IMG/VR virus record: IMGVR_UViG_2740892042_000003
Source of the DNA: a virus
Taxonomy: Duplodnaviria > Heunggongvirae > Uroviricota > Caudoviricetes
DNA length: 61,816 bases
Direction: 5' to 3' (one strand)
Notes under the pieces: model-generated
What the model was told of the DNA's origin: nothing
Database searches by the model: none
What the model saw: only the letters and a program-made list of their open reading frames with translations
Shown here: one piece after another, positions 3,429-47,034 of the stretch
Numbering within the stretch: the stretch's first letter is position 1
Layout of the letters: each line of letters starts with the position of its first letter
Program-made: the position numbers and the translations under genes

Positions 3429-4210
3429 GCAGCCACCTTCTGTTCAGAGGCTTTCTGTTTCAGGAATCCAAGAGCTTTCATTGCTTCGGCCTGTGTCAGT
3501 TCTGACGATGCGCGAATGTCGCGGCGAAATATCTGGGAACAGAGCGGCAATAAGTCGTCATCCCATGTTTTGTCCAGGGCAATCAGCATAGTGTTAATCT
3601 CCTGCATGGTTTCATCGTTAACCGGAGTGATGTCGCGTTCCGGCTGACGTTCTGCAGTGTATGCGGTATTTTCGACAATGCGCTCGGCTTCATCCTTGTC
3701 ATAGATACCAGCAAATCCGAAGGCCAGACGGGCACACTGAATCATGGCTTTATGCCGTAACATCCGTTTGGGATGCGACTGCCACGGCCCCGTGATTTCT
3801 CTGCCTTCGCGGGTTTTGAATGGTTCGCGGCGGCATTCATCCATCCACTCGGTAACGCAGATCGGATGATTGCGGTCCTTGCGGTAAATCCGGCATGTGC
3901 AGGATTCATTGTCCTGCTCAAAGTCCATACCATCAAACTGCTGGTTTTCATTGATGATGCGGGACCAGCCATCAACGCCCACCACCGGAACGATGCCGTT
4001 CTGCTTATCAGGGAAGGCGTAAATTTCTTTCGTCCACGGATTAAGGCCGTACTGGTTGGCGACGATCAACAATGCGATGAACTGCGCATCGCTGGCATCA
4101 CCTTTAAATGCCGTCTGGCGAAGAGTGGTGATCAGTTCCTGTGGGTCGACAGAATCCATGCCGACACGTTCAGCCAGCTTCCCTGCCAGCGTTGCGAGTG
4201 CTGTACTCAT
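3425..4210 (-). CDS. bet: Red beta single-strand annealing protein
   Basis: 261 aa, near-identical to lambda Bet; 4-nt overlap with exo. Confidence 0.95.
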
Positions 4211-4215
4211 CCGTT

Positions 4216-4512
4216 TTATACCTCTGAATCAATATCAACCTGGTGGCGGGCAATAGTTTCAACCATGTACCGGATGTGTTCTGCCATGCGTTCCTGAAAC
4301 TCAACATCGTCATCAAACGCACGGGTAATGGCTTTTTTGCTGGCCCCGTGGCGTTGCAAATGATCGATGCATAGCGATTCAAACAGGTGCTGGGGCAGGC
4401 CTTTTTCCATGTCGTCTGCCAGTTCTGCCTCTTTCTCTTCACGGGCGATCTGCTGGTAGTGACGCGCCCAGCTCTGAGCCTCAAGACGATCCTGAATGTA
4501 ATAAGCGTTCAT
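4216..4512 (-). CDS. gam: Gam (RecBCD inhibitor), short form
   Basis: 98 aa matching the C-terminal 98 residues of lambda Gam ([21 protein letters not shown]...). Confidence 0.9.
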
Positions 4513-4587
4513 GGCTGAACTCCTGAAAATGGCTGTGAAAATATCGCCCGCGAAATGCCTGGCTGATTAGGAAAACAGGAAAGGGGA

Positions 4588-4830
4588 TTAGTGATTCAGG
4601 CCGTTACCGCGTCCGTCGAGAAAAACTTCTACGAGCAAATCACGGGTATAAGTGCGCTCGATGCCGCGATGCAGATAAAGCCGTCCGCGTAAATTAGCTG
4701 ATGCAGTCCAGGTACCATCTTTGTGTTTGACCAGCATTCCTGGCATGACCGCACCTCGATTAACGGTCTGCGTTCCGTAATGTTGATGAACCATAAAAAA
4801 CTCCTGCCCGTAAGCTGGGCTGCTGAACAT
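4588..4830 (-). CDS. hypothetical protein in kil position
   Basis: 80-aa ORF directly downstream of gam on the same strand; identity not recognised. Confidence 0.4.
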
Positions 4831-5240
4831 ATTGAGACTTCTGCGCGTATTCAGGCGGTGGATGGCCGCCGGTTGTCATAACTAAGTCGCCTCGTTGAAG
4901 CGACTGAGGTATGAAGTGTTGAGTTGATTTCAGCTGGTCATACCGACGTTCACGCGTCCGCTTCACCCCTCGCACTCCCCGGAGCCTGCTGAAATTCAAG
5001 CTGCGGATCTAAGCGGTCATCGCAACGGTGAATCAGGTGGTTGCCGTATCGTTGTGTTGTTGCGATATGGTGATAATAGCTATTGCTATTGGTGATATCA
5101 ATACTTATCGCTATTGGCTGATGTGTTTTGATATTAAATGTTTGATAGCAAAAAGAATTAATTTTGTGACTTGCATCGCATAGCGATAACTGAAGCGGGG
5201 GTTATGGTGGTTTTTCGAACGGTTTGTGTGATGAGGGGGA

Positions 5241-5270
5241 GGCAAAAGAAAACCCGGCACGGTGGCCGGG
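5241..5270 (-). terminator. rho-independent terminator ending the repressor operon
   Basis: 6-bp GC stem cccggc/gccggg (5253-5270) with adjacent A-run on plus strand (U-tract on minus) immediately 3' of the 310-aa ORF. Confidence 0.55.
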
Positions 5271-5278
5271 TAGCATCA

Positions 5279-6211
5279 CTATTCGATTTTTTTAACCATG
5301 TAGTTACGTCGTGATGTTCCTAATCTTTCATTGTGAATCTCAGAAACGCTTACTACGAGCGATATTCGTTCACCAACTTTATATTTACTTTGAATTTCTC
5401 CTAACATATCAATCGGATAAGAAGCCTTTATTTTTCCAAGCTCGCTTGCAATCTCCAATTTCCCGTACATGGATAAAATAGCAAGTTCGCCTGATATATG
5501 CTCATCCGGTAGCTGAATGACCTTCGTTAAAGCTAAGCGAGCATTCAGTTTTTTTATATCTTCTGAAGAAATTGACACTTGTCTGGTACCATCACTTAAA
5601 GGTCCAATCCAAGTAAGATCAAAGTTAAGACTATATTTTTCGCACTCATTTATGATGTTTTTTAGGTTAGCTGTTGATTGCGAACCAATTTCGGCAATTT
5701 TAGCCGTGAATGTTTCTTCATCAATGGATGAGAGTAGTGCAAAAATCTCCTTAACAGCATGACTGGATACTGTTTCGATGAGCTCGCAAGAACCAGTAGA
5801 AAAAGTAACACCTAACTTCGTCGAACCTGGACGCAAGTCTGCCAATCTCATGTCTAATGATTTTTTAACATCAATCGGCACACGACTAGAATCTTTCCCA
5901 GATCCAAGTCGGTAAACTGCTTTCTGTACAAGGGATGCGAGATTACCTGAAATTACAGATAGAATATCTAACGGAATAGACCCGAAATCGACCAAAACAC
6001 CTTTTAATCTCAACTCCATGAAATCACGTAAAGGATGTTGGTTATCGATTGCACGTTGTCTCTCTCGGAGATCGCTCAGATGGGAGTCAAGTGATCTAAA
6101 TATAATGTCATCAGCAAATGATCTCCCCTTATTTTGAGCAAGCAGATCCACATCGCGTTGAATGAACGCAATTCGCTCCTTGAGGGAGTTGAATGTTTTT
6201 TCTTCGCTCAT
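5279..6211 (-). CDS. hypothetical 310-aa protein, distal gene of repressor-linked two-gene operon
   Basis: long ORF, no recognised domain; start ATG overlaps stop of upstream ORF (ATGA); followed by terminator. Confidence 0.7.
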   Translation of the reverse strand: MSEEKTFNSLKERIAFIQRDVDLLAQNKGRSFADDIIFRSLDSHLSDLRERQRAIDNQHPLRDFMELRLKGVLVDFGSIPLDILSVISGNLASLVQKAVYRLGSGKDSSRVPIDVKKSLDMRLADLRPGSTKLGVTFSTGSCELIETVSSHAVKEIFALLSSIDEETFTAKIAEIGSQSTANLKNIINECEKYSLNFDLTWIGPLSDGTRQVSISSEDIKKLNARLALTKVIQLPDEHISGELAILSMYGKLEIASELGKIKASYPIDMLGEIQSKYKVGERISLVVSVSEIHNERLGTSRRNYMVKKIE

Positions 6212-6681
6212 AACATTACCCTCACGAGGCCTTTAGGATTCTCCTTCCGATCAAAACCAAACCACCCTCTCCAGTAACTTCGCCTTTCACTATAATCGAT
6301 TTCTGGATGATTTTCAGGCAGCAAAAGAACGTCAATGCTGTAGTTTTCTTTAATAAAATCTCTATTTAACAATGAGCTAACCAATGGCATCAGCGTGTTT
6401 GGCAAAGAGTTTAGGGCCAAATAATCGACGACCACGAGTATATCTATGTCATCAGGTTCAGGTTTCTCTGTAGTGAATGAACCATCGATCCACACTTCAG
6501 AGAAACATAGACACTGCTGATTAACAAGTTTAAATTGCTCAATAAGCTGTATAAAATTACAGTATAGCATACTTCTTCTAACGGATTTTGGGAAGGTGTC
6601 GACACAAAGAGACTTGATGCCATCACTATCCATATCATGAAATCCTGCTGTAAGAAGAGGTGGGAAGCTAGGCTTTTCCAT
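6208..6681 (-). CDS. minimal nucleotidyltransferase-like protein (Pol-beta superfamily motif)
   Basis: 157 aa with WIDGSF...PEPDDIDILVVVD...YSIDVLLL, fitting the GS-x(n)-DhD plus third acidic strand pattern of MNT/SMODS-type NTases; AAGGA RBS upstream; 81 bp downstream of repressor. Confidence 0.7.
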   Translation of the reverse strand: MEKPSFPPLLTAGFHDMDSDGIKSLCVDTFPKSVRRSMLYCNFIQLIEQFKLVNQQCLCFSEVWIDGSFTTEKPEPDDIDILVVVDYLALNSLPNTLMPLVSSLLNRDFIKENYSIDVLLLPENHPEIDYSERRSYWRGWFGFDRKENPKGLVRVML

Positions 6682-6762
6682 CCTAAGTCCTTGTTTATGC
6701 CATATAGCGTTCTATTTAATATTCTTGAAAAGAGTGTGCCTTAAAAAGCTACAGGCTAATTA

Positions 6763-7491
6763 TTAACCATGCTTCCTGTACGTCTGCGGCATGCTCCCAA
6801 TAACCTTACCGAAGATGAACACCCGGTTCATCTCGTCTTTCTCGATCGGGTCCCACGGTGAGTAGCTCTTGTTATCAGAGATAACCAGTAGCTTATCTTT
6901 CATCATTTGCAGGCGCTTTACATGGGCTGTGTCGTCGTACAGAAACGCATAGATACCATCACCGTCGAAAGATTTAACCGTGATATCAACGAACAGCAGA
7001 TCACCTGGTTCGATCGTTCCTGACATGCTGTCACCACGCACGTTAATGATGCGGATATTTTCCGCCTTCCTGCCATCGAACATGTGACGAGCATCGTCAA
7101 ACGAGTACTCAACCGAGCGTAGAACTTCTACAAACTCACGGTTGATTACACCCGGCCCGGCACTGACTTCTATATCAAGAACGTCAATTTTGAAGTATTT
7201 GGAATGGCTGACAGCAGGCTTCCCTGATTGTTGACCGTCATTTCTCATCGGGCCTATGCCTGATGAGAGCCATTCTGTTCGAACACCCAATGCATTAGCT
7301 ATTTCAACAATTTTTGTTGAGCCGCGCGCGTTGCCGCTTGTCAGTCTCCAGATTGTGGGTTGAGCTACGCCAGACGCCTTTGCAAGAGCGCCTTGAGACA
7401 TTCCAGATTGTTCCATCGCTAGGTTTAAGCGATCAGCAAGAGTTTCTTTTTTCATAAGTTTTAATTTATACGCTTGCGTATTGATGGTCAA
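6763..7491 (-). CDS. CI-type repressor (HTH plus S24 LexA-like autopeptidase)
   Basis: N-terminal HTH (MSQGALAKASGVAQPTIWRL), C-terminal GDSMSGTIEPGD with downstream KRL; divergent from cro-like gene; start may be internal ATG at 7455. Confidence 0.85.
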   Translation of the reverse strand: MTINTQAYKLKLMKKETLADRLNLAMEQSGMSQGALAKASGVAQPTIWRLTSGNARGSTKIVEIANALGVRTEWLSSGIGPMRNDGQQSGKPAVSHSKYFKIDVLDIEVSAGPGVINREFVEVLRSVEYSFDDARHMFDGRKAENIRIINVRGDSMSGTIEPGDLLFVDITVKSFDGDGIYAFLYDDTAHVKRLQMMKDKLLVISDNKSYSPWDPIEKDEMNRVFIFGKVIGSMPQTYRKHG

Positions 7492-7531
7492 AACACGTTT
7501 TGCTATTGCTTGGATTAATACGCATTGCTAT
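7468..7531. promoter_or_regulatory. operator/promoter region between repressor and cro
   Basis: palindrome atacgcttgcgtat (7468-7481) and related atacgcattgctat (7518-7531) in the divergent intergenic region. Confidence 0.5.
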
Positions 7532-7559
7532 TATTCATTCATTGCAATACCAGTAGGAA

Positions 7560-7793
7560 TTGATAATGACAAATCAAACCATTCAACTCGCAATCAGTAT
7601 TACAGGTAGTCAAAAACGACTGGCAGATCTATGCGGTGTAGCCCAACCCACTGTTTGGCGTTGGCTACACGGTGGCGGAATTGATGCCCGCTATGTAATG
7701 AAAATTGTCTCAGCCACTGGTGGAAAGATTAAACCAGCAGATATTCGTCCCGACCTCGCACCATTGTTTAACGCGAGTAATTCTGCCGCCTAA
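7560..7793 (+). CDS. Cro/YdaS-like HTH regulator
   Basis: 77 aa, HTH (QKRLADLCGVAQPTVWRW), divergently transcribed from repressor. Confidence 0.75.
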   Translation: MIMTNQTIQLAISITGSQKRLADLCGVAQPTVWRWLHGGGIDARYVMKIVSATGGKIKPADIRPDLAPLFNASNSAA

Positions 7794-7817
7794 ACTGCGG
7801 CGTTAACTGATAAGGCA

Positions 7818-8363
7818 ATGACTATGCAACCACTTACATACCAACAGACTAGCGGATTTATCCCGACTGCGGTGATAAATCGTTCTCAAATAAAACAGGT
7901 GCCAGGCCACGAAAAAATCCGTGATGCCATCCGCGCCTGGTCGGCTGTAGATAATCAGGATGTCGTTGCCGCACTCATTGTGAATGAGTATCGAGCACAG
8001 GGCGGCGGCACTATCGATTTTCCTGATGATGTCAGTCGTGCACGCCAGAAGCTGTTCCGCTTTCTCGATAACAAATTCGATTCTGAAAAATACCGAAATA
8101 ACGTGCGTGAACTGACTCCAGCAATTCTGGCAGTACTACCGCTGAAATATCGCGGCCACCTGGTTGAGCAGGATAGCTTCATGGCTCGGCTGGCTGAAAT
8201 GGAAAAGGAACTCAGTGAGGCAAAACAGGCTGTCATTCTCAACGCACCACGCCACCAGAAACTGAAGGAGATGAGTGAAGGCATTGTGTCGATGTTTCGT
8301 GTGGACCCGGATTTGGCTGGTCCACTGATGGCGATGGTCACCACCATGCTGGGGGCAATATGA
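7818..8363 (+). CDS. hypothetical protein in cII position
   Basis: 181-aa ORF between cro-like gene and O; no recognised domain. Confidence 0.45.
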   Translation: MTMQPLTYQQTSGFIPTAVINRSQIKQVPGHEKIRDAIRAWSAVDNQDVVAALIVNEYRAQGGGTIDFPDDVSRARQKLFRFLDNKFDSEKYRNNVRELTPAILAVLPLKYRGHLVEQDSFMARLAEMEKELSEAKQAVILNAPRHQKLKEMSEGIVSMFRVDPDLAGPLMAMVTTMLGAI

Positions 8364-8449
8364 CAGGTTCAGAAATGGCGAAAGCCGGTCTGCGCGAACA
8401 GAACCGACTTTCAGGTGCAAATCGTAACACACTCATTGCGGGAGGAATT

Positions 8450-9379
8450 ATGGCAAACACTGCTGAGATATTCAATTTTCCAGTGCCGGATGTGGCACAA
8501 AAGGAGCCGCGCGTGGCAGATCTCGATGATGGTTATACGCGCATTGCAAATGAGTTGCTGGAAGCTGTGATGCTGGCCGGATTAACACAGCACCAGCTTC
8601 TGGTCTTCCTGGCTGTCATGCGCAAAACATATGGCTTTAATAAAAAACTGGATTGGGTGAGCAACGAGCAACTTTCCGAATTGACCGGGATATTGCCGCA
8701 CAAGTGTTCTGCTGCAAAAAGCGTTCTGGTAAAGCGTGGGATTCTTATTCAGAGCGGGCGGAATATCGGCATTAATAATGTGGTCAGTGAATGGTCAACA
8801 TTACCCGAATCAGGTAAGAAAAATAAAGTTTACCTGAAAGAGGTAAATTTACCTGAATCAGGTAAGAAAAGTTTACCCAAATCAGGTAAAGGCGTTTACC
8901 CGAATCAGGTAAACACAAAAGACAAACTAACAAAAGACAATATAAAACCTTTTTCGTCCGAGAATTCTGGCGAATCCTCTGACCAACCAGAAAACGATCT
9001 TCCTGTGGAGAAGCCAGATGCTGCAATTCAGAGCGGCAGCAGGTGGGGGACAGCAGAAGACCTGACCGCCGCAGAGTGGATGTTTGACATGGTGAAGACC
9101 ATCGCGCCATCAGCCAGAAAACCGAATTTTGCAGGGTGGGCTAACGATATCCGCCTGATGCGTGAACGTGACGGACGTAACCACCGCGACATGTGCGTGC
9201 TGTTCCGCTGGGCATGCCAGGACAACTTTTGGTCTGGTAACGTGCTGAGCCCGGCCAAACTTCGCGACAAGTGGACCCAACTCGAAATCAACCGTAACAA
9301 ACAACAGGCTGGCGTGACAGCCGGAAAACCAAAACTCGACCTGACAAACACAGACTGGATTTACGGGGTGGATCTATGA
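8450..9379 (+). CDS. O: replication initiator O-like protein
   Basis: ATG at 8450 preceded by GGAGG; contains in-gene iterons; followed by P with 4-nt overlap; C-terminus resembles lambda O P-binding region. Confidence 0.8.
   Translation: MANTAEIFNFPVPDVAQKEPRVADLDDGYTRIANELLEAVMLAGLTQHQLLVFLAVMRKTYGFNKKLDWVSNEQLSELTGILPHKCSAAKSVLVKRGILIQSGRNIGINNVVSEWSTLPESGKKNKVYLKEVNLPESGKKSLPKSGKGVYPNQVNTKDKLTKDNIKPFSSENSGESSDQPENDLPVEKPDAAIQSGSRWGTAEDLTAAEWMFDMVKTIAPSARKPNFAGWANDIRLMRERDGRNHRDMCVLFRWACQDNFWSGNVLSPAKLRDKWTQLEINRNKQQAGVTAGKPKLDLTNTDWIYGVDL
8803..8910 (+). repeat. replication origin iterons inside O
   Basis: four copies of palindromic core acc[c/t][g/a]aatcaggt at 8803, 8851, 8875, 8898 plus one degenerate copy. 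Confidence 0.65.
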
Positions 9380-10776: not shown

Positions 10777-11020
10777 AAATAATTTCTTTTAAAAGACTGA
10801 AATATGGCGGTTCATATCTTTACATGGGCCGCTTTTGTTAATGTTTTTAGTTTTTGTGTATTCTTTTGTGCCTTCAAGATTATTGCGTAAGCAAATTGCA
10901 ATACGATTATTGTTGTATATTCAAAAGAATGTGATCGTAATTGTCTTTTTAAATAAAAATTAAACAAAAATTATATCTCACCACTAAGGTTTATAAAAGC
11001 ATACGTTAGCAGGTGTCACC

Positions 11021-12547
11021 ATGAAAAAAGCCATAGCATATATGCGATTTTCATCACCAGGTCAGATGTCTGGCGACTCATTAAACCGACAGAGAAGACT
11101 TATTGCTGAATGGTTAAAGGTAAATAGTGATTATTATCTTGATACCATAACATATGAAGATTTAGGATTAAGTGCATTCAAAGGAAAGCATGCACAATCA
11201 GGAGCTTTTTCGGAATTTTTAGATGCTATAGAGCATGGTTATATATTGCCAGGAACTACATTGCTAGTTGAAAGTCTGGACAGACTTTCAAGAGAAAAAG
11301 TCGGTGAAGCGATTGAGCGTCTGAAATTGATTTTGAATCACGGTATTGATGTTATAACTCTTTGCGATAATACAGTCTATAATATTGACTCTTTGAATGA
11401 TCCATATTCATTAATAAAAGCCATACTTATAGCACAAAGGGCAAATGAAGAAAGCGAGATAAAGTCAAGTCGGGTTAAATTATCATGGAAGAAAAAACGG
11501 CAGGATGCACTGGAGTCAGGCACGATTATGACGGCGTCTTGTCCGAGATGGCTCTCATTGGATGACAAAAGAACAGCTTTTATTCCAGACCCCGACAGGG
11601 TGAAAACGATTGAGCTAATTTTTAAACTCAGGATGGAAAGGCGATCATTGAATGCAATAGCCAAGTATTTAAATGATCATGCTGTAAAAAATTTCTCAGG
11701 AAAAGAAAGTGCATGGGGGCCTTCTGTAATTGAAAAATTATTAGCGAATAAAGCTCTGATAGGTATATGCGTACCTTCATATCGTGCAAGAGGTAAAGGA
11801 ATAAGTGAAATCGCTGGCTATTATCCCAGAGTCATATCAGATGATTTGTTTTACGCTGTGCAGGAAATTCGGTTGGCACCTTTTGGTATTAGCAATAGTA
11901 GCAAAAATCCTATGTTGATAAATCTACTTCGAACAGTTATGAAGTGCGAGGCTTGTGGTAATACCATGATTGTTCATGCGGTATCTGGAAGTTTGCATGG
12001 CTATTATGTTTGTCCGATGAGAAGACTGCATCGATGTGGCAGGCCATCAATAAAGAGAGATTTGGTTGATTATAATATCATTAATGAGTTGCTTTTTAAT
12101 TGTAGTAAAATCCAACCAGTTGAAAACAAGAAAGATGCTAATGAAACTTTAGAGTTGAAAATTATTGAGCTCCATATGAAAATTAATAATTTAATTGCTG
12201 CATTATCTGTTGCGCCTGAAGTTACCGCTATAGCAGAAAAAATCAGAGTATTAGATAAGGAATTACGAAGGGCTTCTGTATCATTAAAAACTTTGAAGAG
12301 TAAAGCGGTGAGCTCACTTGGTGATTTTCATGCTATTGACTTAACCAGTAAAAATGGGCGAGAGCTATGTCGTACACTTGCCTATAAAACATTCGAAAAA
12401 ATCATAATCAATACAGATAATAAAACCTGTGATATCTATTTTATGAATGGCATTGTTTTTAAACACTATCCTTTAATGAAAACAATATCCGCCCAGCAGG
12501 CGATAAGTACTCTCAAATATATGGTTGATGGTGAGGTTTATTTTTGA
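11021..12547 (+). CDS. ybcK: large serine recombinase YbcK
   Basis: 508 aa; N-terminal resolvase-type catalytic domain (AYMRFSSPGQ), large C-terminal domain with Cys cluster; matches DLP12 YbcK. Confidence 0.9.
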   Translation: MKKAIAYMRFSSPGQMSGDSLNRQRRLIAEWLKVNSDYYLDTITYEDLGLSAFKGKHAQSGAFSEFLDAIEHGYILPGTTLLVESLDRLSREKVGEAIERLKLILNHGIDVITLCDNTVYNIDSLNDPYSLIKAILIAQRANEESEIKSSRVKLSWKKKRQDALESGTIMTASCPRWLSLDDKRTAFIPDPDRVKTIELIFKLRMERRSLNAIAKYLNDHAVKNFSGKESAWGPSVIEKLLANKALIGICVPSYRARGKGISEIAGYYPRVISDDLFYAVQEIRLAPFGISNSSKNPMLINLLRTVMKCEACGNTMIVHAVSGSLHGYYVCPMRRLHRCGRPSIKRDLVDYNIINELLFNCSKIQPVENKKDANETLELKIIELHMKINNLIAALSVAPEVTAIAEKIRVLDKELRRASVSLKTLKSKAVSSLGDFHAIDLTSKNGRELCRTLAYKTFEKIIINTDNKTCDIYFMNGIVFKHYPLMKTISAQQAISTLKYMVDGEVYF

Positions 12548-13939: not shown

Positions 13940-14131
13940 ATCCACTAAATTGATTTTCAACAATCAACTTGCCATAATTAAGTCACCGGAGTTTGAACTC
14001 CTCCGGTGACTTCTGCGCTAAACGGGGACGTTTATGCGCACATACAATCCAACCTCTCTTCTCCATTCACAGATGCAGAAATGCACCTGCGATATTTTGC
14101 ATCCAGCGTTTGATCTCTGCGGAGGTGAAGC

Positions 14132-14587
14132 GTGAACCTCCCACAAGATGGTATCAAATTGCATCGCGGTAACTTCACCGCTATCGGTCGGCAGATCCAG
14201 CCTTATCTGGAGGACGGCAAATGCTTTCGCATGGTGCTTAAACCGTGGCGCGAGAGACGCAGTCTTTCCCAGAATGCACTCAGCCACATGTGGTACAGCG
14301 AAATCAGTGAATACCTCATCAGCAAGGGTAAAACGTTCGCCACTCCAGCTTGGGTAAAAGATGCTCTCAAACACACATATCTCGGTTATGAAACCAAAGA
14401 CCTGGTTGATGTCGTAACCGGTGATATCACCACTATCCAGTCGTTACGCCATACCTCCGATCTTGATACCGGAGAGATGTATGTCTTCCTGTGTAAGGTT
14501 GAAGCCTGGGCGATGAATATTGGCTGCCACCTGACTATTCCGCAGAGCTGCGAGTTCCAGCTGCTGCGTGATAAGCAGGAGGCGTAA
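14132..14587 (+). CDS. ybcN: YbcN (DLP12 nin-region protein)
   Basis: 151 aa, matches remembered E. coli YbcN. Confidence 0.85.
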
Positions 14588-14757
14588 TGGCTACACCGCT
14601 TATTCGTGTCATGAACGGACACATCTACAAAGTACCAAATCGTCGTAAGCGTAAGCCTGAGCTGAAACCATCCGAAATACCAACACTGCTCGGATATACC
14701 GCCAGCCTGGTTGATAAAAAATGGTTGCGACTGGCAGCAAGGAGGAATCATGGCTGA
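14587..14757 (+). CDS. ninE: NinE family protein
   Basis: 56-aa ORF ([26 protein letters not shown]...) starting in the TAATG overlap with ybcN; below the ORF-track length cutoff. Confidence 0.7.
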   Translation: MATPLIRVMNGHIYKVPNRRKRKPELKPSEIPTLLGYTASLVDKKWLRLAARRNHG

Positions 14758-15040
14758 TTTGAGAAAAGCAGCGCGTGGTCGGGAATGCCAGGTAAGAATC
14801 CCTGGCGTATGTAATGGCAATCCTGAAACGTCAGTACTGGCACATATCCGGCTGGCTGGATTGTGCGGTACCGGTATCAAACCGCCAGACCTGATTGCCA
14901 CCATTGCATGTTCTGCCTGCCACGACGAAATCGACCGTCGCACGCATTTTGTTGACGCTGGATATGCAAAAGAATGTGCGCTGGAAGGTATGGCGAGAAC
15001 ACAGGTTATCTGGCTGAAAGAGGGGGTAATTAAGGCGTGA
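14750..15040 (+). CDS. ybcO: YbcO (DUF1364)
   Basis: 96 aa from [23 protein letters not shown]..., AGGAGG RBS; Cys-rich. Confidence 0.8.
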
Positions 15041-15399
15041 ATACTTACAGCATCACATTACCCTGGCCTCCGAGCAATAATCGCTATTACCGCCATAATC
15101 GCGGGCGCACGCACATCAGCGCAGAGGGGCAGGCATACCGCGATAACGTCGCCCGAATCATCAAAGGCTCCATGCTGGATATCGGCCTGGCTATGCCAGT
15201 GAAAATCCGTATTGAGTGCCACATGCCGGATCGCCGTCGCCGTGACCTGGATAATCTGCAAAAAGCCGCTTTTGACGCACTCACCAAAGCAGGTTTCTGG
15301 CTGGATGATGCTCAGGTCGTTGATTACCGCATTGTGAAGATGCCTGTTACCAAAGGTGGGAGGCTGGAACTGACCATCACCGAAATGGGGAATGAATGA
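15037..15399 (+). CDS. rusA: Holliday junction resolvase RusA
   Basis: 120 aa matching RusA ([18 protein letters not shown]...). Confidence 0.9.
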
Positions 15400-15536
15400 T
15401 GTTTGAGTTTTATATGGCAGAACTTCTTCGCCACCGCTGGGGGCGTCTGCGCTTATATCGTTTCCCCGGTTCTGTTTTGACCGATTACCGAATACTGAAG
15501 AATTACGCCAAAACCCTGACAGGAGCAGGAGTATGA
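15396..15536 (+). CDS. ylcG: YlcG small protein
   Basis: 46-aa [18 protein letters not shown]... overlapping rusA stop. Confidence 0.6.
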
Positions 15537-15621
15537 AGTCAGAGATAACAATCAACTAATACTGTTTTGTTGATTTTTGCTTGTAATTGGCGTTCTGGTC
15601 TGATTTTTGTGGAGTAAGTTG

Positions 15622-43720: not shown

Positions 43721-44136
43721 GTTTTGCCCTGAAACTGGCGCGTGAGATGGGGCGACCCGACTGGCGTGCCATGCTTGCCGGGATGTCATCCACGGAGTAT
43801 GCCGACTGGCACCGCTTTTACAGTACCCATTATTTTCATGATGTTCTGCTGGATATGCACTTTTCCGGGCTGACGTACACCGTGCTCAGCCTGTTTTTCA
43901 GCGATCCGGATATGCATCCGCTGGATTTCAGTTTGCTGAACCGGCGCGAGGCTGACGAGGAGCCTGAAGATGATGTGCTGATGCAGAAAGCGGCAGGGCT
44001 TGCCGGAGGTGTCCGCTTTGGCCCGGACGGGAATGAAGTTATCCCTACTTCCCCGGATGTGGCGGACATGACGGAGGATGACGTAATGCTGATGACAGTA
44101 TCAGAAGGGATCGCAGGAGGAGTCCGGTATGGCTGA
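43702..44136 (+). CDS. T: T segment of G-T fusion made by -1 frameshift
   Basis: -1-frame ORF matching lambda T; slippery gggaaag at about 43694-43700. Confidence 0.8.
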   Translation: MFDGELSFALKLAREMGRPDWRAMLAGMSSTEYADWHRFYSTHYFHDVLLDMHFSGLTYTVLSLFFSDPDMHPLDFSLLNRREADEEPEDDVLMQKAAGLAGGVRFGPDGNEVIPTSPDVADMTEDDVMLMTVSEGIAGGVRYG

Positions 44137-46708
44137 ACCGGTAGGCGATCTGGTCGTTGATTTGAGTCTGGATGCGGCCAGATTTGACGAGCAGATGGCC
44201 AGAGTCAGGCGTCATTTTTCCGGTACGGAAAGTGATGCGAAAAAAACAGCGGCAGTCGTTGAACAGTCGCTGAGCCGACAGGCGCTGGCTGCACAGAAAG
44301 CGGGGATTTCCGTCGGGCAGTATAAAGCCGCCATGCGTATGCTGCCTGCACAGTTCACCGACGTGGCCACGCAGCTTGCAGGCGGGCAAAGTCCGTGGCT
44401 GATCCTGCTGCAACAGGGTGGTCAGGTTAAGGACTCCTTCGGCGGGATGATCCCCATGTTCAGGGGGCTTGCCGGTGCGATCACCCTGCCGATGGTGGGG
44501 GCCACCTCGCTGGCGGTGGCGACCGGTGCGCTGGCGTATGCCTGGTATCAGGGCAACTCAACCCTGTCCGATTTCAACAAAACGCTGGTCCTTTCCGGCA
44601 ATCAGGCGGGACTGACGGCAGATCGTATTCTGGCCCTGTCCAGAGCCGGGCAGGCGGCAGGGCTGACGTTTAACCAGACCAGCGAGTCACTGACGGCGCT
44701 GGTGAATGCCGGTGTGCGTGGTGGTGAGCAGTTTGAGGCGATCAGCCAGAGTGTGGCGCGTTTCTCCTCTGCATCCGGCGTGGAGGTGGACAAGGTCGCT
44801 GAAGCCTTCGGGAAGCTGACCACAGACCCGACGTCGGGACTGACAGCGATGGCACGTCAGTTCCATAACGTGACGGCGGAGCAGATTGCGTATGTTGCTC
44901 AGTTGCAGCGTTCCGGAGATGAAGCCGGGGCATTGCAGGCGGCGAACGAGGCCGCAACGAAAGGGTTTGATGACCAGACCCGCCGCCTGAAAGAGAACAT
45001 GGGCACGCTGGAGACCTGGGCAGACAGGACAGCACGGGCATTCAAATCCATGTGGGATTCGGTGCTGGATATTGGTCGCCCGGACACTGCCCGGGAAATG
45101 CTGGAGAAAGCAGAAAAGGCTTTTGATGAGGCGGACAAAAAATGGCAGTGGTATCAGAGCCGGAGCCACCGGCGCGGTAAAACATCCGCATTTCTTGCCA
45201 ATCTCCGGGGAGCATGGGAGGACAGAGCGAATGCGCAACTTGGGCTTTCAGCCGCCACGTTGCAGGCCGATCTTGAAAAGGCCAGAGAGATGGCAGCAAA
45301 GGACTGGGCCGAGTCTGAGGCATCACGGCTGAAATATACCGAAGAGGCGCAGAAGGCTTATGAACGCCTGCAGACGCCGCTGGAGAAATATACCGCCCGT
45401 CAGGAAGAACTGAACAAGGCACTGAAGGACGGGAAAATTCTGCAGGCAGATTACAACACGCTGATGGCGGCGGCGAAAAAGGACTATGAAGCGACGCTGA
45501 AAAAGCCGAAACAGTCCGGCGTGAAGGTGTCTGCGGGCGATCGTCAGGAAGACAGTGCTCATGCTGCCCTGCTGACGCTTCAGGCTGAACTCCGGACGCT
45601 GGAGAGGCATGCCGGAGCAAATGAGAAAATCAGCCAGCAGCGCCGGGATTTGTGGAAGGCGGAGAGTCAGTTCGCGGTACTGGAGGAGGCGGCGCAACGT
45701 CGCCAGCTGTCTGCACAGGAGAAATCCCTGCTGGCGCATAAAGATGAGACGCTGGAGTACAAACGCCAGCTGGCTGCACTTGGCGACAAGGTTACGTATC
45801 AGGAGCGCCTGAACGCGCTGGCGCAGCAGGCGGATAAATTCGCACAGCAGCAACGGGCAAAACGGGCCGCCATTGATGCGAAAAGCCGGGGGCTGACTGA
45901 CCGGCAGGCAGAACGGGAAGCCACGGAACAGCGCCTGAAGGAACAGTATGGCGATAATCCGCTGGCGCTGAATAACGTCATGTCAGAGCAGAAAAAGACC
46001 TGGGCGGCTGAAGACCAGCTTCGCGGGAACTGGATGGCAGGCCTGAAGTCCGGCTGGAGTGAGTGGGAAGAGAGCGCCACGGACAGTATGTCGCAGGTAA
46101 AAAGTGCAGCCACGCAGACCTTTGATGGTATTGCACAGAATATGGCGGCGATGCTGACCGGCAGTGAGCAGAACTGGCGCAGCTTCACCCGTTCCGTGCT
46201 GTCCATGATGACAGAAATTCTGCTTAAGCAGGCAATGGTGGGGATTGTCGGGAGTATCGGCAGCGCCATTGGCGGGGCTGTTGGTGGCGGCGCATCCGCG
46301 TCAGGCGGTACAGCCATTCAGGCCGCTGCGGCGAAATTCCATTTTGCAACCGGAGGATTTACGGGAACCGGCGGCAAATATGAGCCAGCGGGGATTGTTC
46401 ACCGTGGTGAGTTTGTCTTCACGAAGGAGGCAACCAGCCGGATTGGCGTGGGGAATCTTTACCGGCTGATGCGCGGCTATGCCACCGGCGGTTATGTCGG
46501 TACACCGGGCAGCATGGCAGACAGCCGGTCGCAGGCGTCCGGGACGTTTGAGCAGAATAACCATGTGGTGATTAACAACGACGGCACGAACGGGCAGATA
46601 GGTCCGGCCGCTCTGAAGGCGGTGTATGACATGGCCCGCAAGGGTGCCCGTGATGAAATTCAGACACAGATGCGTGATGGTGGCCTGTTCTCCGGAGGTG
46701 GACGATGA
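44129..46708 (+). CDS. H: tape measure protein H
   Basis: 859 aa matching lambda gpH. Confidence 0.95.
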   Translation: MAEPVGDLVVDLSLDAARFDEQMARVRRHFSGTESDAKKTAAVVEQSLSRQALAAQKAGISVGQYKAAMRMLPAQFTDVATQLAGGQSPWLILLQQGGQVKDSFGGMIPMFRGLAGAITLPMVGATSLAVATGALAYAWYQGNSTLSDFNKTLVLSGNQAGLTADRILALSRAGQAAGLTFNQTSESLTALVNAGVRGGEQFEAISQSVARFSSASGVEVDKVAEAFGKLTTDPTSGLTAMARQFHNVTAEQIAYVAQLQRSGDEAGALQAANEAATKGFDDQTRRLKENMGTLETWADRTARAFKSMWDSVLDIGRPDTAREMLEKAEKAFDEADKKWQWYQSRSHRRGKTSAFLANLRGAWEDRANAQLGLSAATLQADLEKAREMAAKDWAESEASRLKYTEEAQKAYERLQTPLEKYTARQEELNKALKDGKILQADYNTLMAAAKKDYEATLKKPKQSGVKVSAGDRQEDSAHAALLTLQAELRTLERHAGANEKISQQRRDLWKAESQFAVLEEAAQRRQLSAQEKSLLAHKDETLEYKRQLAALGDKVTYQERLNALAQQADKFAQQQRAKRAAIDAKSRGLTDRQAEREATEQRLKEQYGDNPLALNNVMSEQKKTWAAEDQLRGNWMAGLKSGWSEWEESATDSMSQVKSAATQTFDGIAQNMAAMLTGSEQNWRSFTRSVLSMMTEILLKQAMVGIVGSIGSAIGGAVGGGASASGGTAIQAAAAKFHFATGGFTGTGGKYEPAGIVHRGEFVFTKEATSRIGVGNLYRLMRGYATGGYVGTPGSMADSRSQASGTFEQNNHVVINNDGTNGQIGPAALKAVYDMARKGARDEIQTQMRDGGLFSGGGR

Positions 46709-47034
46709 AGACCTTCCGCTGGAAAGTGAAACCCGGTATGGATGTGACATCGGCTCCTTCTGTCAGGGAGGTGCGCTTTGGTGATGGCTATTCCCAGCGT
46801 GCGCCTGCCGGGCTGAACGCTGACCTGAAAACGTACAGCGTGACGCTGTCTGTCTCCCGTGAGGAGGCCACGGCGCTGGAGTCGTTTCTGGCTGAGCACG
46901 GGGGCTGGAAGGCCTTTCTGTGGACGCCGCCTTATGGTTACAGGCAGATAAAGGTGACCTGCGCAAAATGGTCGTCGCAGGTCAGTATGTTGCGTGTTGA
47001 GTTCAGCGCAGAGTTTAAACAGGTGGTGAACTGA
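46705..47034 (+). CDS. M: minor tail protein M
   Basis: 109 aa matching lambda gpM. Confidence 0.9.
   Translation: MKTFRWKVKPGMDVTSAPSVREVRFGDGYSQRAPAGLNADLKTYSVTLSVSREEATALESFLAEHGGWKAFLWTPPYGYRQIKVTCAKWSSQVSMLRVEFSAEFKQVVN

Follow-up and report, generated by a model that had tools for sequence, protein, structure and literature searches.

The stretch of DNA analysed here, a 61,816-nt viral sequence held as IMG/VR record IMGVR_UViG_2740892042_000003 (Caudoviricetes; referred to throughout as the window), carries directly downstream of its cI repressor gene a pair of overlapping genes, here called A and B, which encode a predicted minimal nucleotidyltransferase (NTase) and a partner protein with a predicted OB fold. 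Between positions 5100 and 7600 the window is 99.9% identical to Escherichia phage PhiR30_1 (PV340558.1), and the region represents a lambda-like E. coli prophage; the annotated gene order in PhiR30_1 is int ... exo, bet, gam, kil, two hypothetical genes, cI, cro, cII, O, P, ren ... Q, lysis, followed by lambda-type head and tail genes. The cI gene (6763..7455, on the minus strand, as are all features of the operon) encodes a CI-type repressor of 230 amino acids (aa) when read from its ATG, with HTH_3 and Peptidase_S24 domains (Pfam matches: Peptidase_S24, 1.5e-18; HTH_3, 1.5e-06; Phage_CI_repr, 0.0028), and is labelled cI in PV340558. Gene A (6208..6681, 157 aa) and gene B (5279..6211, 310 aa) correspond to entries of the open reading frame (ORF) list. 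The stop codon of A (TGA, 6210-6208) and the start codon of B (ATG, 6211-6209) overlap as ATGA (read ...GTA ATG TTA TGA GCG...), by which B is predicted to be translationally coupled to A. A first-pass annotation of this DNA had already described the two ORFs, their ATGA overlap and their position downstream of a CI-type repressor on the same strand, all of which is borne out by the coordinates and the Pfam matches.

A promoter scan placed a pRM-like promoter of cI-A-B (TTGACC-17-TAAATT) at 7463..7491 on the minus strand. The TTG listed as the start of cI (7491) coincides with the -35 hexamer TTGACC of this promoter, while its -10 element TAAATT ends at 7463, 7 nt ahead of the ATG at 7455; the cI mRNA is therefore probably leaderless, as is the transcript from lambda pRM. 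As promoter-like sites occur in the region at chance frequency (8 vs 6.9 expected), the pRM assignment is positional and drawn by analogy with lambda. Promoter-like sites are also present inside A ahead of B (6335->6307 and 6317->6289), and a pLIT-like internal promoter for B was rejected on the same chance-level count.

The terminator scan detected no minus-strand terminator-like site in the 81-nt gap between cI and A. The operon ends in an intrinsic terminator (5242..5271, minus strand) that starts 8 nt past the stop codon of B and consists of a stem at 5271-5252 (7 bp, six of them G-C, with a loop of 6) followed by TTTTCTTTTG down to 5242. Its fold energy of -18.3 kcal/mol (z = -2.9 vs shuffles) substantiates the hairpin and U-tract that had been placed here from the sequence. 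Just beyond lies an oL/pL-like region (5073..5151, minus strand), which combines a cluster of TTGCTATT-like operator motifs with a leftward pL-like promoter found by the promoter scan (TTGATA-17-TATTAT, 5101->5073). Six TTGCTATT-like 8-mers fall within 5075-5151, compared with 81 across the whole 61.8-kb window, and exact copies of this type of 8-mer occur at 7500 and 7525 in the spacer between cI and cro. Since the operator motifs and the pL-like promoter follow immediately on the terminator, A-B sits between cI and oL/pL. On the lambda map this slot holds rexA-rexB, and the earlier assignment of the pair to the rexAB position thus holds.

The Rfam scan of positions 4000-9000 returned matches at chance level alone, with no put, nut or small RNA family, and the interval from the pL-like promoter to kil (window 4760-5151) has no annotated gene for an N-type antiterminator. 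An ORF at 4760-4999 on the minus strand has an arginine-rich N-terminus (RGVKRTRERRYDQ) and no PHROG match. By contrast, phages mEpX1 and vB_EhrS_59 carry a nutL boxA and N right after A-B.

Comparison with related phages revealed that A and B, together with their own 81-nt leader, behave as an exchangeable cargo cassette (5272..6762, minus strand). In blastn alignments with the four sister phages PhiR68_2, PhiR70_1, 4A7 and Perceval, identity of 95-99% extends up to 5270-5273 in the terminator stem and resumes at 6761-6767, at the cI stop codon, and all four phages hold different cargo between these two points. The cI genes of the sister phages are 96-99% identical in DNA, the terminator sequence is kept at about 95%, and the G+C content of A-B is 39-40% vs 48-52% in the flanks. 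In 4A7 the slot is occupied by PDC-M11A/B (a 353-aa protein and an ASCH protein), in PhiR70_1 by a three-gene module with an MqsA-type antitoxin, in PhiR68_2 by an uncharacterised pair of 341 and 149 aa, and in Perceval by a 340-aa protein and one of 168 aa with a transmembrane annotation. Of the five cargos of the slot, two have no PADLOC or Pfam match. By these alignments the terminator is part of the conserved phage backbone and not of the cassette. An exact exchange of cassettes between the cI stop codon and a common terminator in sister phages is new here. As the cargo is plugged in between cI and a terminator of the backbone, the arrangement provides the strongest sequence-level argument for co-transcription, and we infer that A and B are transcribed together with cI.

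Protein A belongs to the Pfam family DUF6932 (PF22014; E 4.1e-26, 92.5 bits vs a cut-off of 27) and matches PDC-M63A of PADLOC (PDLC04744; 7.4e-43 over residues 1-156) as well as phrog_9194 (2e-69). Its match to Pfam Polbeta (PF18765), at 14.6 bits, stays below the gathering score of 26.9, and a match to DNA_pol_B_palm is likewise sub-threshold. The protein carries the hG[GS] ... DxD plus third-carboxylate signature of Pol-beta NTases: the catalytic motif D66-G67-S68 ... D78-I-D80 is encoded at 6442..6486 (minus strand; codons checked in the sequence), and the third carboxylate, D117 (6331-6333, minus strand), lies on strand 116-123 of the structure model. Among 42 homologs reaching down to 35% identity, G13, R36, W64, D66, G67, S68, T71, K73, D78, D80, W137, R145, K150 and G151 are invariant and D117 is conserved in at least 90%. 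The AlphaFold2 (AF2) model of A has a pLDDT of 96, and its best PDB matches in Foldseek are minimal NTases, namely 2rff and the minimal nucleotidyltransferase (MNT) antitoxins 7ae2_B and 7ae9_G (probability 0.90-0.93); further matches comprise 8xeo_B (the MNT of a HEPN-MNT pair), HI0073 (1no5_B) and AadA/AAD(9). A profile search of PDB sequences with A returned no significant relative, and Pfam and PADLOC gave no A match to SMODS, CD-NTase, CBASS or DUF1814/AbiEii. On the evidence of sequence conservation and the model, A is a divergent minimal Pol-beta NTase with an intact active site. The first-pass annotation had read A as a minimal NTase of MNT/SMODS type from its GS, DxD and third-acid pattern; the minimal NTase and its likeness to MNT are supported by the DUF6932 match, the 42-homolog conservation and the Foldseek neighbours, while a signal generator of the SMODS/CD-NTase kind is unlikely, as A is a single-lobe NTase of 157 aa that matches no such family.

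The annotated start of A differs between databases. GenBank PV340558.1 (6506-6931, window 6208-6633) begins the gene at M17 and yields 141 aa, whereas the RefSeq call of 474 nt gives 157 aa. The longer form, starting at 6681, is supported by this RefSeq call and by the conserved N-terminus (FPPLL-PGFHD, with the invariant G13). The A homolog of vB_EhrS_59 is likewise annotated too short (119 aa). In a metagenomic variant (L083 39-1047), a DUF6932 gene with a histidine aligned at the third aspartate is overlapped by an upstream 188-aa gene that has no Pfam family; this locus may be a three-gene variant.

Protein B matches PDC-M63B of PADLOC (PDLC04749; 4e-42), five further M63B hidden Markov models (HMMs) and phrog_6603 (5e-177), and has no Pfam or NCBIfam family. 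A profile search of 1.84e9 cluster representatives returned 270 at E<=1e-3, nearly all of 300-325 aa and none with a fusion or an alternative architecture, and a Pfam scan of 65 diverse members gave no consistent family. With hundreds of homologs each, A and B are real genes and not chance ORFs. In the AF2 model of B (pLDDT 79), residues 10-56 form a helical hairpin, 62-228 an alpha/beta region, and the C-terminal residues 229-309 a well-modelled beta-barrel. This last part (about residues 229-309; 5285..5527, minus strand) is a closed, five-stranded barrel with a helix between strands 3 and 4, of the type found in SSB, RPA and tRNA-synthetase anticodon-binding domains, and its structural neighbours include the anticodon-binding domains of asparaginyl- and lysyl-tRNA synthetases (AsnRS and LysRS), single-stranded DNA-binding proteins (SSBs) and ExoVII. 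According to the model, the C-terminal third of B is an OB fold. Sequence searches of the PDB with three profiles returned nothing significant.

Conservation across the 65 diverse B representatives peaks at S130 and W201 (both 100%) and G129 (98%), and further positions conserved at 90% or more are D/E63, K/R68, G77, P80, G105 and G176. S130, encoded at 5822..5824 (minus strand) within a G129-S130-T131 motif, is the only invariant polar residue of the family and sits in a low-confidence loop (pLDDT 53-60 for residues 121-150); we regard it as a candidate modification or ligand site. In agreement with what had been noted earlier, B has no segment of membrane-level hydrophobicity (maximum Kyte-Doolittle mean over 19 residues, 1.54), and neither protein resembles RexA or RexB, for which Pfam and PADLOC gave no match. 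A HEPN-like hint that had been seen in the motif RAIDNQH did not survive: close homologs already differ at R53, distant ones lack H59, no Rx4-6H is conserved in the 65 members, and the HEPN Pfam matches amount to one of 65 each, at E 0.005-0.016. A reading of B as a degenerate NTase akin to A was also rejected (hhalign probability 0.2%).

The two genes are tightly coupled over a wide phylogenetic range. The 4-nt overlap is kept in all six species-representative genomes, and A precedes B with this overlap in all but two or three of the loci formed by the six species genomes and 57 IMG/VR loci. Behind every distant DUF6932 gene sampled (35-45% identity to A; Pseudoalteromonas, Bermanella, Thioalkalivibrio and metagenomes) comes a gene of 303-324 aa that overlaps or abuts it and, where aligned or searched, is a B homolog of 22-29% identity; all 12 independent DUF6932 contexts sampled hold a B homolog. 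Conversely, a DUF6932 gene directly precedes B in two of its remotest representatives, with the gene left uncalled in one of the two. The persistence of the A->B coupling down to about 20-25% identity in B is new here. A cassette at least 99% identical to the one in the window is present in 98 of 5426 complete E. coli genomes (about 2%), always on the chromosome and labelled "hypothetical protein | DUF6932 family protein" in RefSeq. Of 50,697 phage records, the pair is present in those of just three phages (PhiR30_1, mEpX1 and Erwinia phage vB_EhrS_59), and it occurs in only three plasmid records, none of them a mobilisable plasmid.

Linkage to repressor genes recurs as well. Among 47 distinct proteins encoded immediately upstream of the pair, 33 contain HTH_3 and 29 Peptidase_S24, in a viral-contig sample that started from Enterobacterales patterns and over-represents prophages; the upstream repressors form three or more clusters with less than 35% identity, taking in 54 of 65 loci. 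Phages mEpX1 and vB_EhrS_59 show the layout cro <- | cI -> A -> B -> nutL/N, and the cI-A-B order recurs in a metagenomic prophage with an A of only 38% identity. The recurrence of the pair behind at least three unrelated repressor families is a new observation. Elsewhere the pair was found in an smpB-linked integrase island, adjoining Mrr; in a Tn3/mer element, adjoining a GmrSD-like gene; alongside a NACHT/STAND gene; within an island that also holds a DUF3427 helicase, YoeB/YefM and AbiEii/AbiEi; and next to imuA-imuB-dnaE2. In E. coli OkiPb01716 (NZ_AP042701.1 621731-622893) an IS3 element lies between A and B; the 3' end of A is shortened there (465 vs 474 nt), B is intact, and the insertion parts B from the promoter of the operon.

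The prophage carries further morons, namely an acyltransferase paired with a lipoprotein downstream of ren, an OmpD-like porin downstream of Q, and Bor, Lom, a 494-aa hypothetical protein and an OmpT-like protease toward the right end. These lie at about 10850-11860, 14100-15270 and about 44000-46600 of the window, equivalent to 11151-12160, 14414-15572 and 44293-46917 of PV340558.

The pair had been called undescribed, which does not hold: its HMM matches make it a member of the PADLOC candidate system PDC-M63, it corresponds to phrog_9194 and phrog_6603, and it is RefSeq-annotated in the 98 genomes. PDC-M63 stems from a guilt-by-embedding screen (Payne et al., bioRxiv 10.1101/2024.01.29.577857) for cassettes inside BREX, DISARM or type I restriction-modification (RM) loci, in which it is cassette CAS_00189 (FAM_00167>>FAM_00523, count 45) and stands as a purely computational candidate, unvalidated and with neither its domains nor a mechanism described. 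According to Table S8 of that work, the NTase family FAM_00167 also occurs in a commoner two-gene cassette with FAM_01519 (count 269), which was rejected as a candidate. The searchable papers and supplement parts on PDC-M63 make no mention of repressor linkage, cassette boundaries, the OB fold of B or the conserved S130. Likewise, the searchable papers contain no mention of DUF6932, the RefSeq and GenBank protein accessions or PhiR30_1, and for mEpX1 and vB_EhrS_59, no title or abstract (the parts of that literature covered) concerns the A-B genes.

Based on these observations, we tentatively favour a mechanism in which A restrains B, an OB-fold effector, in the manner of MntA-HepT, Hailong or Clover, leading to lysogen-expressed exclusion or abortive infection; we regard it as possible and stop short of calling it probable. 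A role as a brake is preferred for A because the NTase acts as a negative regulator in these characterised two-gene systems. Two kinds of context were counted in its favour: the placement of the pair directly downstream of cI-type repressors, which argues for expression in the lysogen, and the embedding of the family in BREX, DISARM and type I RM loci and next to NACHT, Mrr, GmrSD-like, AbiE and YoeB genes, which is a defence-type setting. Further points in favour are the intact active site of A with MNT antitoxins as best solved neighbours, the obligate A->B pairing, and the nature of the slot as an exact exchange site that holds PDC-M11AB or an MqsA-containing module in sister phages. From context, a defence or exclusion role of the pair is plausible.

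In such a scheme, A-B would be a lysogen-expressed accessory module of the PDC-M63 family, transcribed with cI from the pRM-like promoter to the backbone terminator, whose two products most likely form a complex. B would be a soluble protein of two parts, a novel N-terminal alpha/beta region and the C-terminal OB fold, and in the uninfected lysogen A would act as a negative regulator, or guard, that holds it inactive. The likeliest form of restraint would be a covalent nucleotidylylation of B, with the invariant S130 as candidate acceptor, or alternatively a nucleotide or oligonucleotide made by A and bound by the OB fold of B. A second phage might lift the restraint, for example through changes in the nucleotide pool, the action of a phage-encoded nuclease or hydrolase, or the disappearance of A, upon which freed B could use its OB fold to capture single-stranded nucleic acid and halt replication or gene expression, with superinfection exclusion or abortive infection as the outcome. 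With expression tied to that of the repressor, the module would fall silent once the carrier phage is induced. Whether the system amounts to a new class of prophage immunity is doubtful in our estimate; such a class would consist of a minimal NTase guarding an OB-fold effector with an unseen N-terminal domain, whether through nucleotidylylation of a serine or through an oligonucleotide ligand in the OB fold, released when a phage perturbs the mark, and active in the lysogen only, being off on induction.

Several results weigh against this mechanism. The Foldseek statistics of A are weak (E 4e-3 to 1e-1, TM-score 0.3-0.4), so that its analogy with MNTs is one of fold class and not of close kinship. 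The N-terminal 228 residues of B match no solved structure or family and B contains no recognisable toxin or nuclease motif, and the effector role is for this reason one that we purely infer. Identities of A and B to the pair in the window are incongruent between clades (60% for A and 72% for B in locus L046, 69% and 60% in L051; the comparison covered loci L039-L082 and L006-L011), which suggests either recombination between the two genes or unequal rates and is unlike the prediction for a tightly co-evolving toxin-antitoxin (TA) interface. Finally, in the only published test, whose authors noted that PDC-M63 had never previously been verified, deletion of the prophage-encoded PDC-M63AB in its native host E. 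coli NILS69 left both the efficiency of plating and the lysis in liquid culture unchanged for 10 virulent phages.

The NILS69 result, being the sole native-host test and showing no defence phenotype, fits with a selfish addiction (TA-like), lysogenic-conversion or regulatory module that has no direct anti-phage role and instead stabilises the mobile element or alters host physiology. The occurrence of the pair in many mobile elements (prophages, the smpB-linked integrase island, the Tn3/mer element) agrees with such a function, as does the MqsA-containing TA-like module in the same slot of a sister phage, and cassettes inside RM or BREX loci also include plain TA modules. However, the placement behind at least three unrelated repressor families is the rexAB position and argues for a function of the lysogen against other phages, the test panel contained no temperate phages, and TA and abortive-infection roles are compatible with each other; we consider a purely selfish or regulatory role somewhat unlikely. 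The intact and strongly conserved active site of A would also be expected if its chemistry were the output, with A and B forming a holoenzyme in which the OB fold recruits a single-stranded substrate (a tRNA end, single-stranded DNA or a phage replication intermediate) and A adds nucleotides to it, toxic to phage or cell in the manner of MenT or AbiEii. AsnRS and LysRS anticodon-binding domains, SSBs and ExoVII among the neighbours of the OB fold point in this direction, the lack of a catalytic motif in B itself would suit a targeting subunit, and the incongruence of A and B alleles would be tolerable if the interface were conserved. Yet A has no DUF1814/AbiEii-type match in Pfam or PADLOC and its nearest folds are regulatory MNTs and small-molecule NTases, a constitutive tagging of nucleic acids in the lysogen would need a control step of which none is evident, and the negative NILS69 deletion counts here too, which makes a holoenzyme of this kind unlikely.

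Far less probable still is an activating signal, as the first-pass annotation had entertained, in which A would be a CBASS/SMODS/CD-NTase-like synthase whose product switches on B as receptor-effector. Foldseek does list CdnC and CdnE among the weaker hits to A (ranks 9, 23, 28 and 32), and an OB fold could bind an oligonucleotide signal. Yet the 157-aa A is built of one lobe only, the second one of CD-NTases being absent, and no effector domain of the CBASS kind (nuclease, phospholipase, TIR or transmembrane) is recognisable in B. A SAVED/CARF reading of the central domain of B was rejected: its lone match, of residues 63-98 to the SAVED-domain chain 9r8s_A, occurred once, is non-significant (E 1.2) and disappeared with a broader profile.

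If active, the pair would be a further immune module under NTase control, with an effector that joins an OB fold to an otherwise unknown domain, and would extend the theme of the NTase as a brake known from MntA-HepT, Hailong and Clover; if true, the wiring into the repressor operon, off on induction, would give the carrier phage a built-in self-immunity. The slot between cI and the terminator is a clean natural example of a plug-in site and can be mined systematically for lysogen-expressed defence genes. The presence of the cassette in about 2% of complete E. coli genomes could affect host range in phage therapy, with the sole test so far negative. Taken together, the exactness of the exchange, the repeated association with repressors and the obligate pairing make the context of the pair stronger than the first-pass annotation knew.

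Among known systems, PDC-M63 is the direct counterpart of the pair, as both proteins of the window match the family HMMs strongly and the two genes stand in the same order. CBASS differs, since neither a SMODS, CD-NTase nor CBASS HMM matches and B has no supported SAVED or effector domain. AbiE (AbiEi/AbiEii) and MenA-MenT are two-gene abortive-infection or TA modules built, like A-B, around an NTase of Pol-beta fold, and an AbiEii/AbiEi pair even shares an island with one distant A-B pair. Their NTase, however, is a DUF1814 toxin of about 290 aa with a winged helix-turn-helix (HTH) or kinase-like antitoxin as partner, while A is a 157-aa DUF6932 protein and B has no HTH; the AbiEi, MenA and DUF1814 families of Pfam and PADLOC gave no match for A or B. 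With lambda RexA-RexB the pair shares the slot between cI and oL/pL, the orientation of cI, the terminator behind it and the expected expression in the lysogen. There is no family kinship (no RexA or RexB match in Pfam or PADLOC at E<=1), and RexB is a polytopic membrane protein whereas B is predicted to be soluble. MntA-HepT, a type VII TA system in which MntA AMPylates HepT, also encodes a small minimal Pol-beta NTase first and an overlapping partner downstream, has the same GS/DxD chemistry and supplies the MNT antitoxins (7ae2_B, 7ae9_G, 8xeo_B) that are the best solved structural neighbours of A; unlike HepT, B is not a HEPN protein, being 310 aa long with an OB fold, and A is a DUF6932 member that stays sub-threshold for the Polbeta/MNT families of Pfam. 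In Hailong, the NTase HalB makes oligo-dA and thereby keeps the HalA channel shut, and in Clover, the NTase CloB makes p3diT and inhibits the dGTPase CloA (PMC13434031). Both are two-gene anti-phage operons whose NTase constitutively produces an inhibitory nucleotide or oligo-dA ligand, for which the OB fold of B would be a plausible oligonucleotide receptor here; HalB and CloB are absent among the 50 listed Foldseek PDB matches of A, and B is neither a membrane channel as HalA nor a dNTPase as CloA. Already catalogued as an unvalidated anti-phage candidate, the PDC-M63 pair is a real but only moderately new lead, which relative to characterised systems would represent the theme of an NTase plus partner with a new, OB-fold partner.

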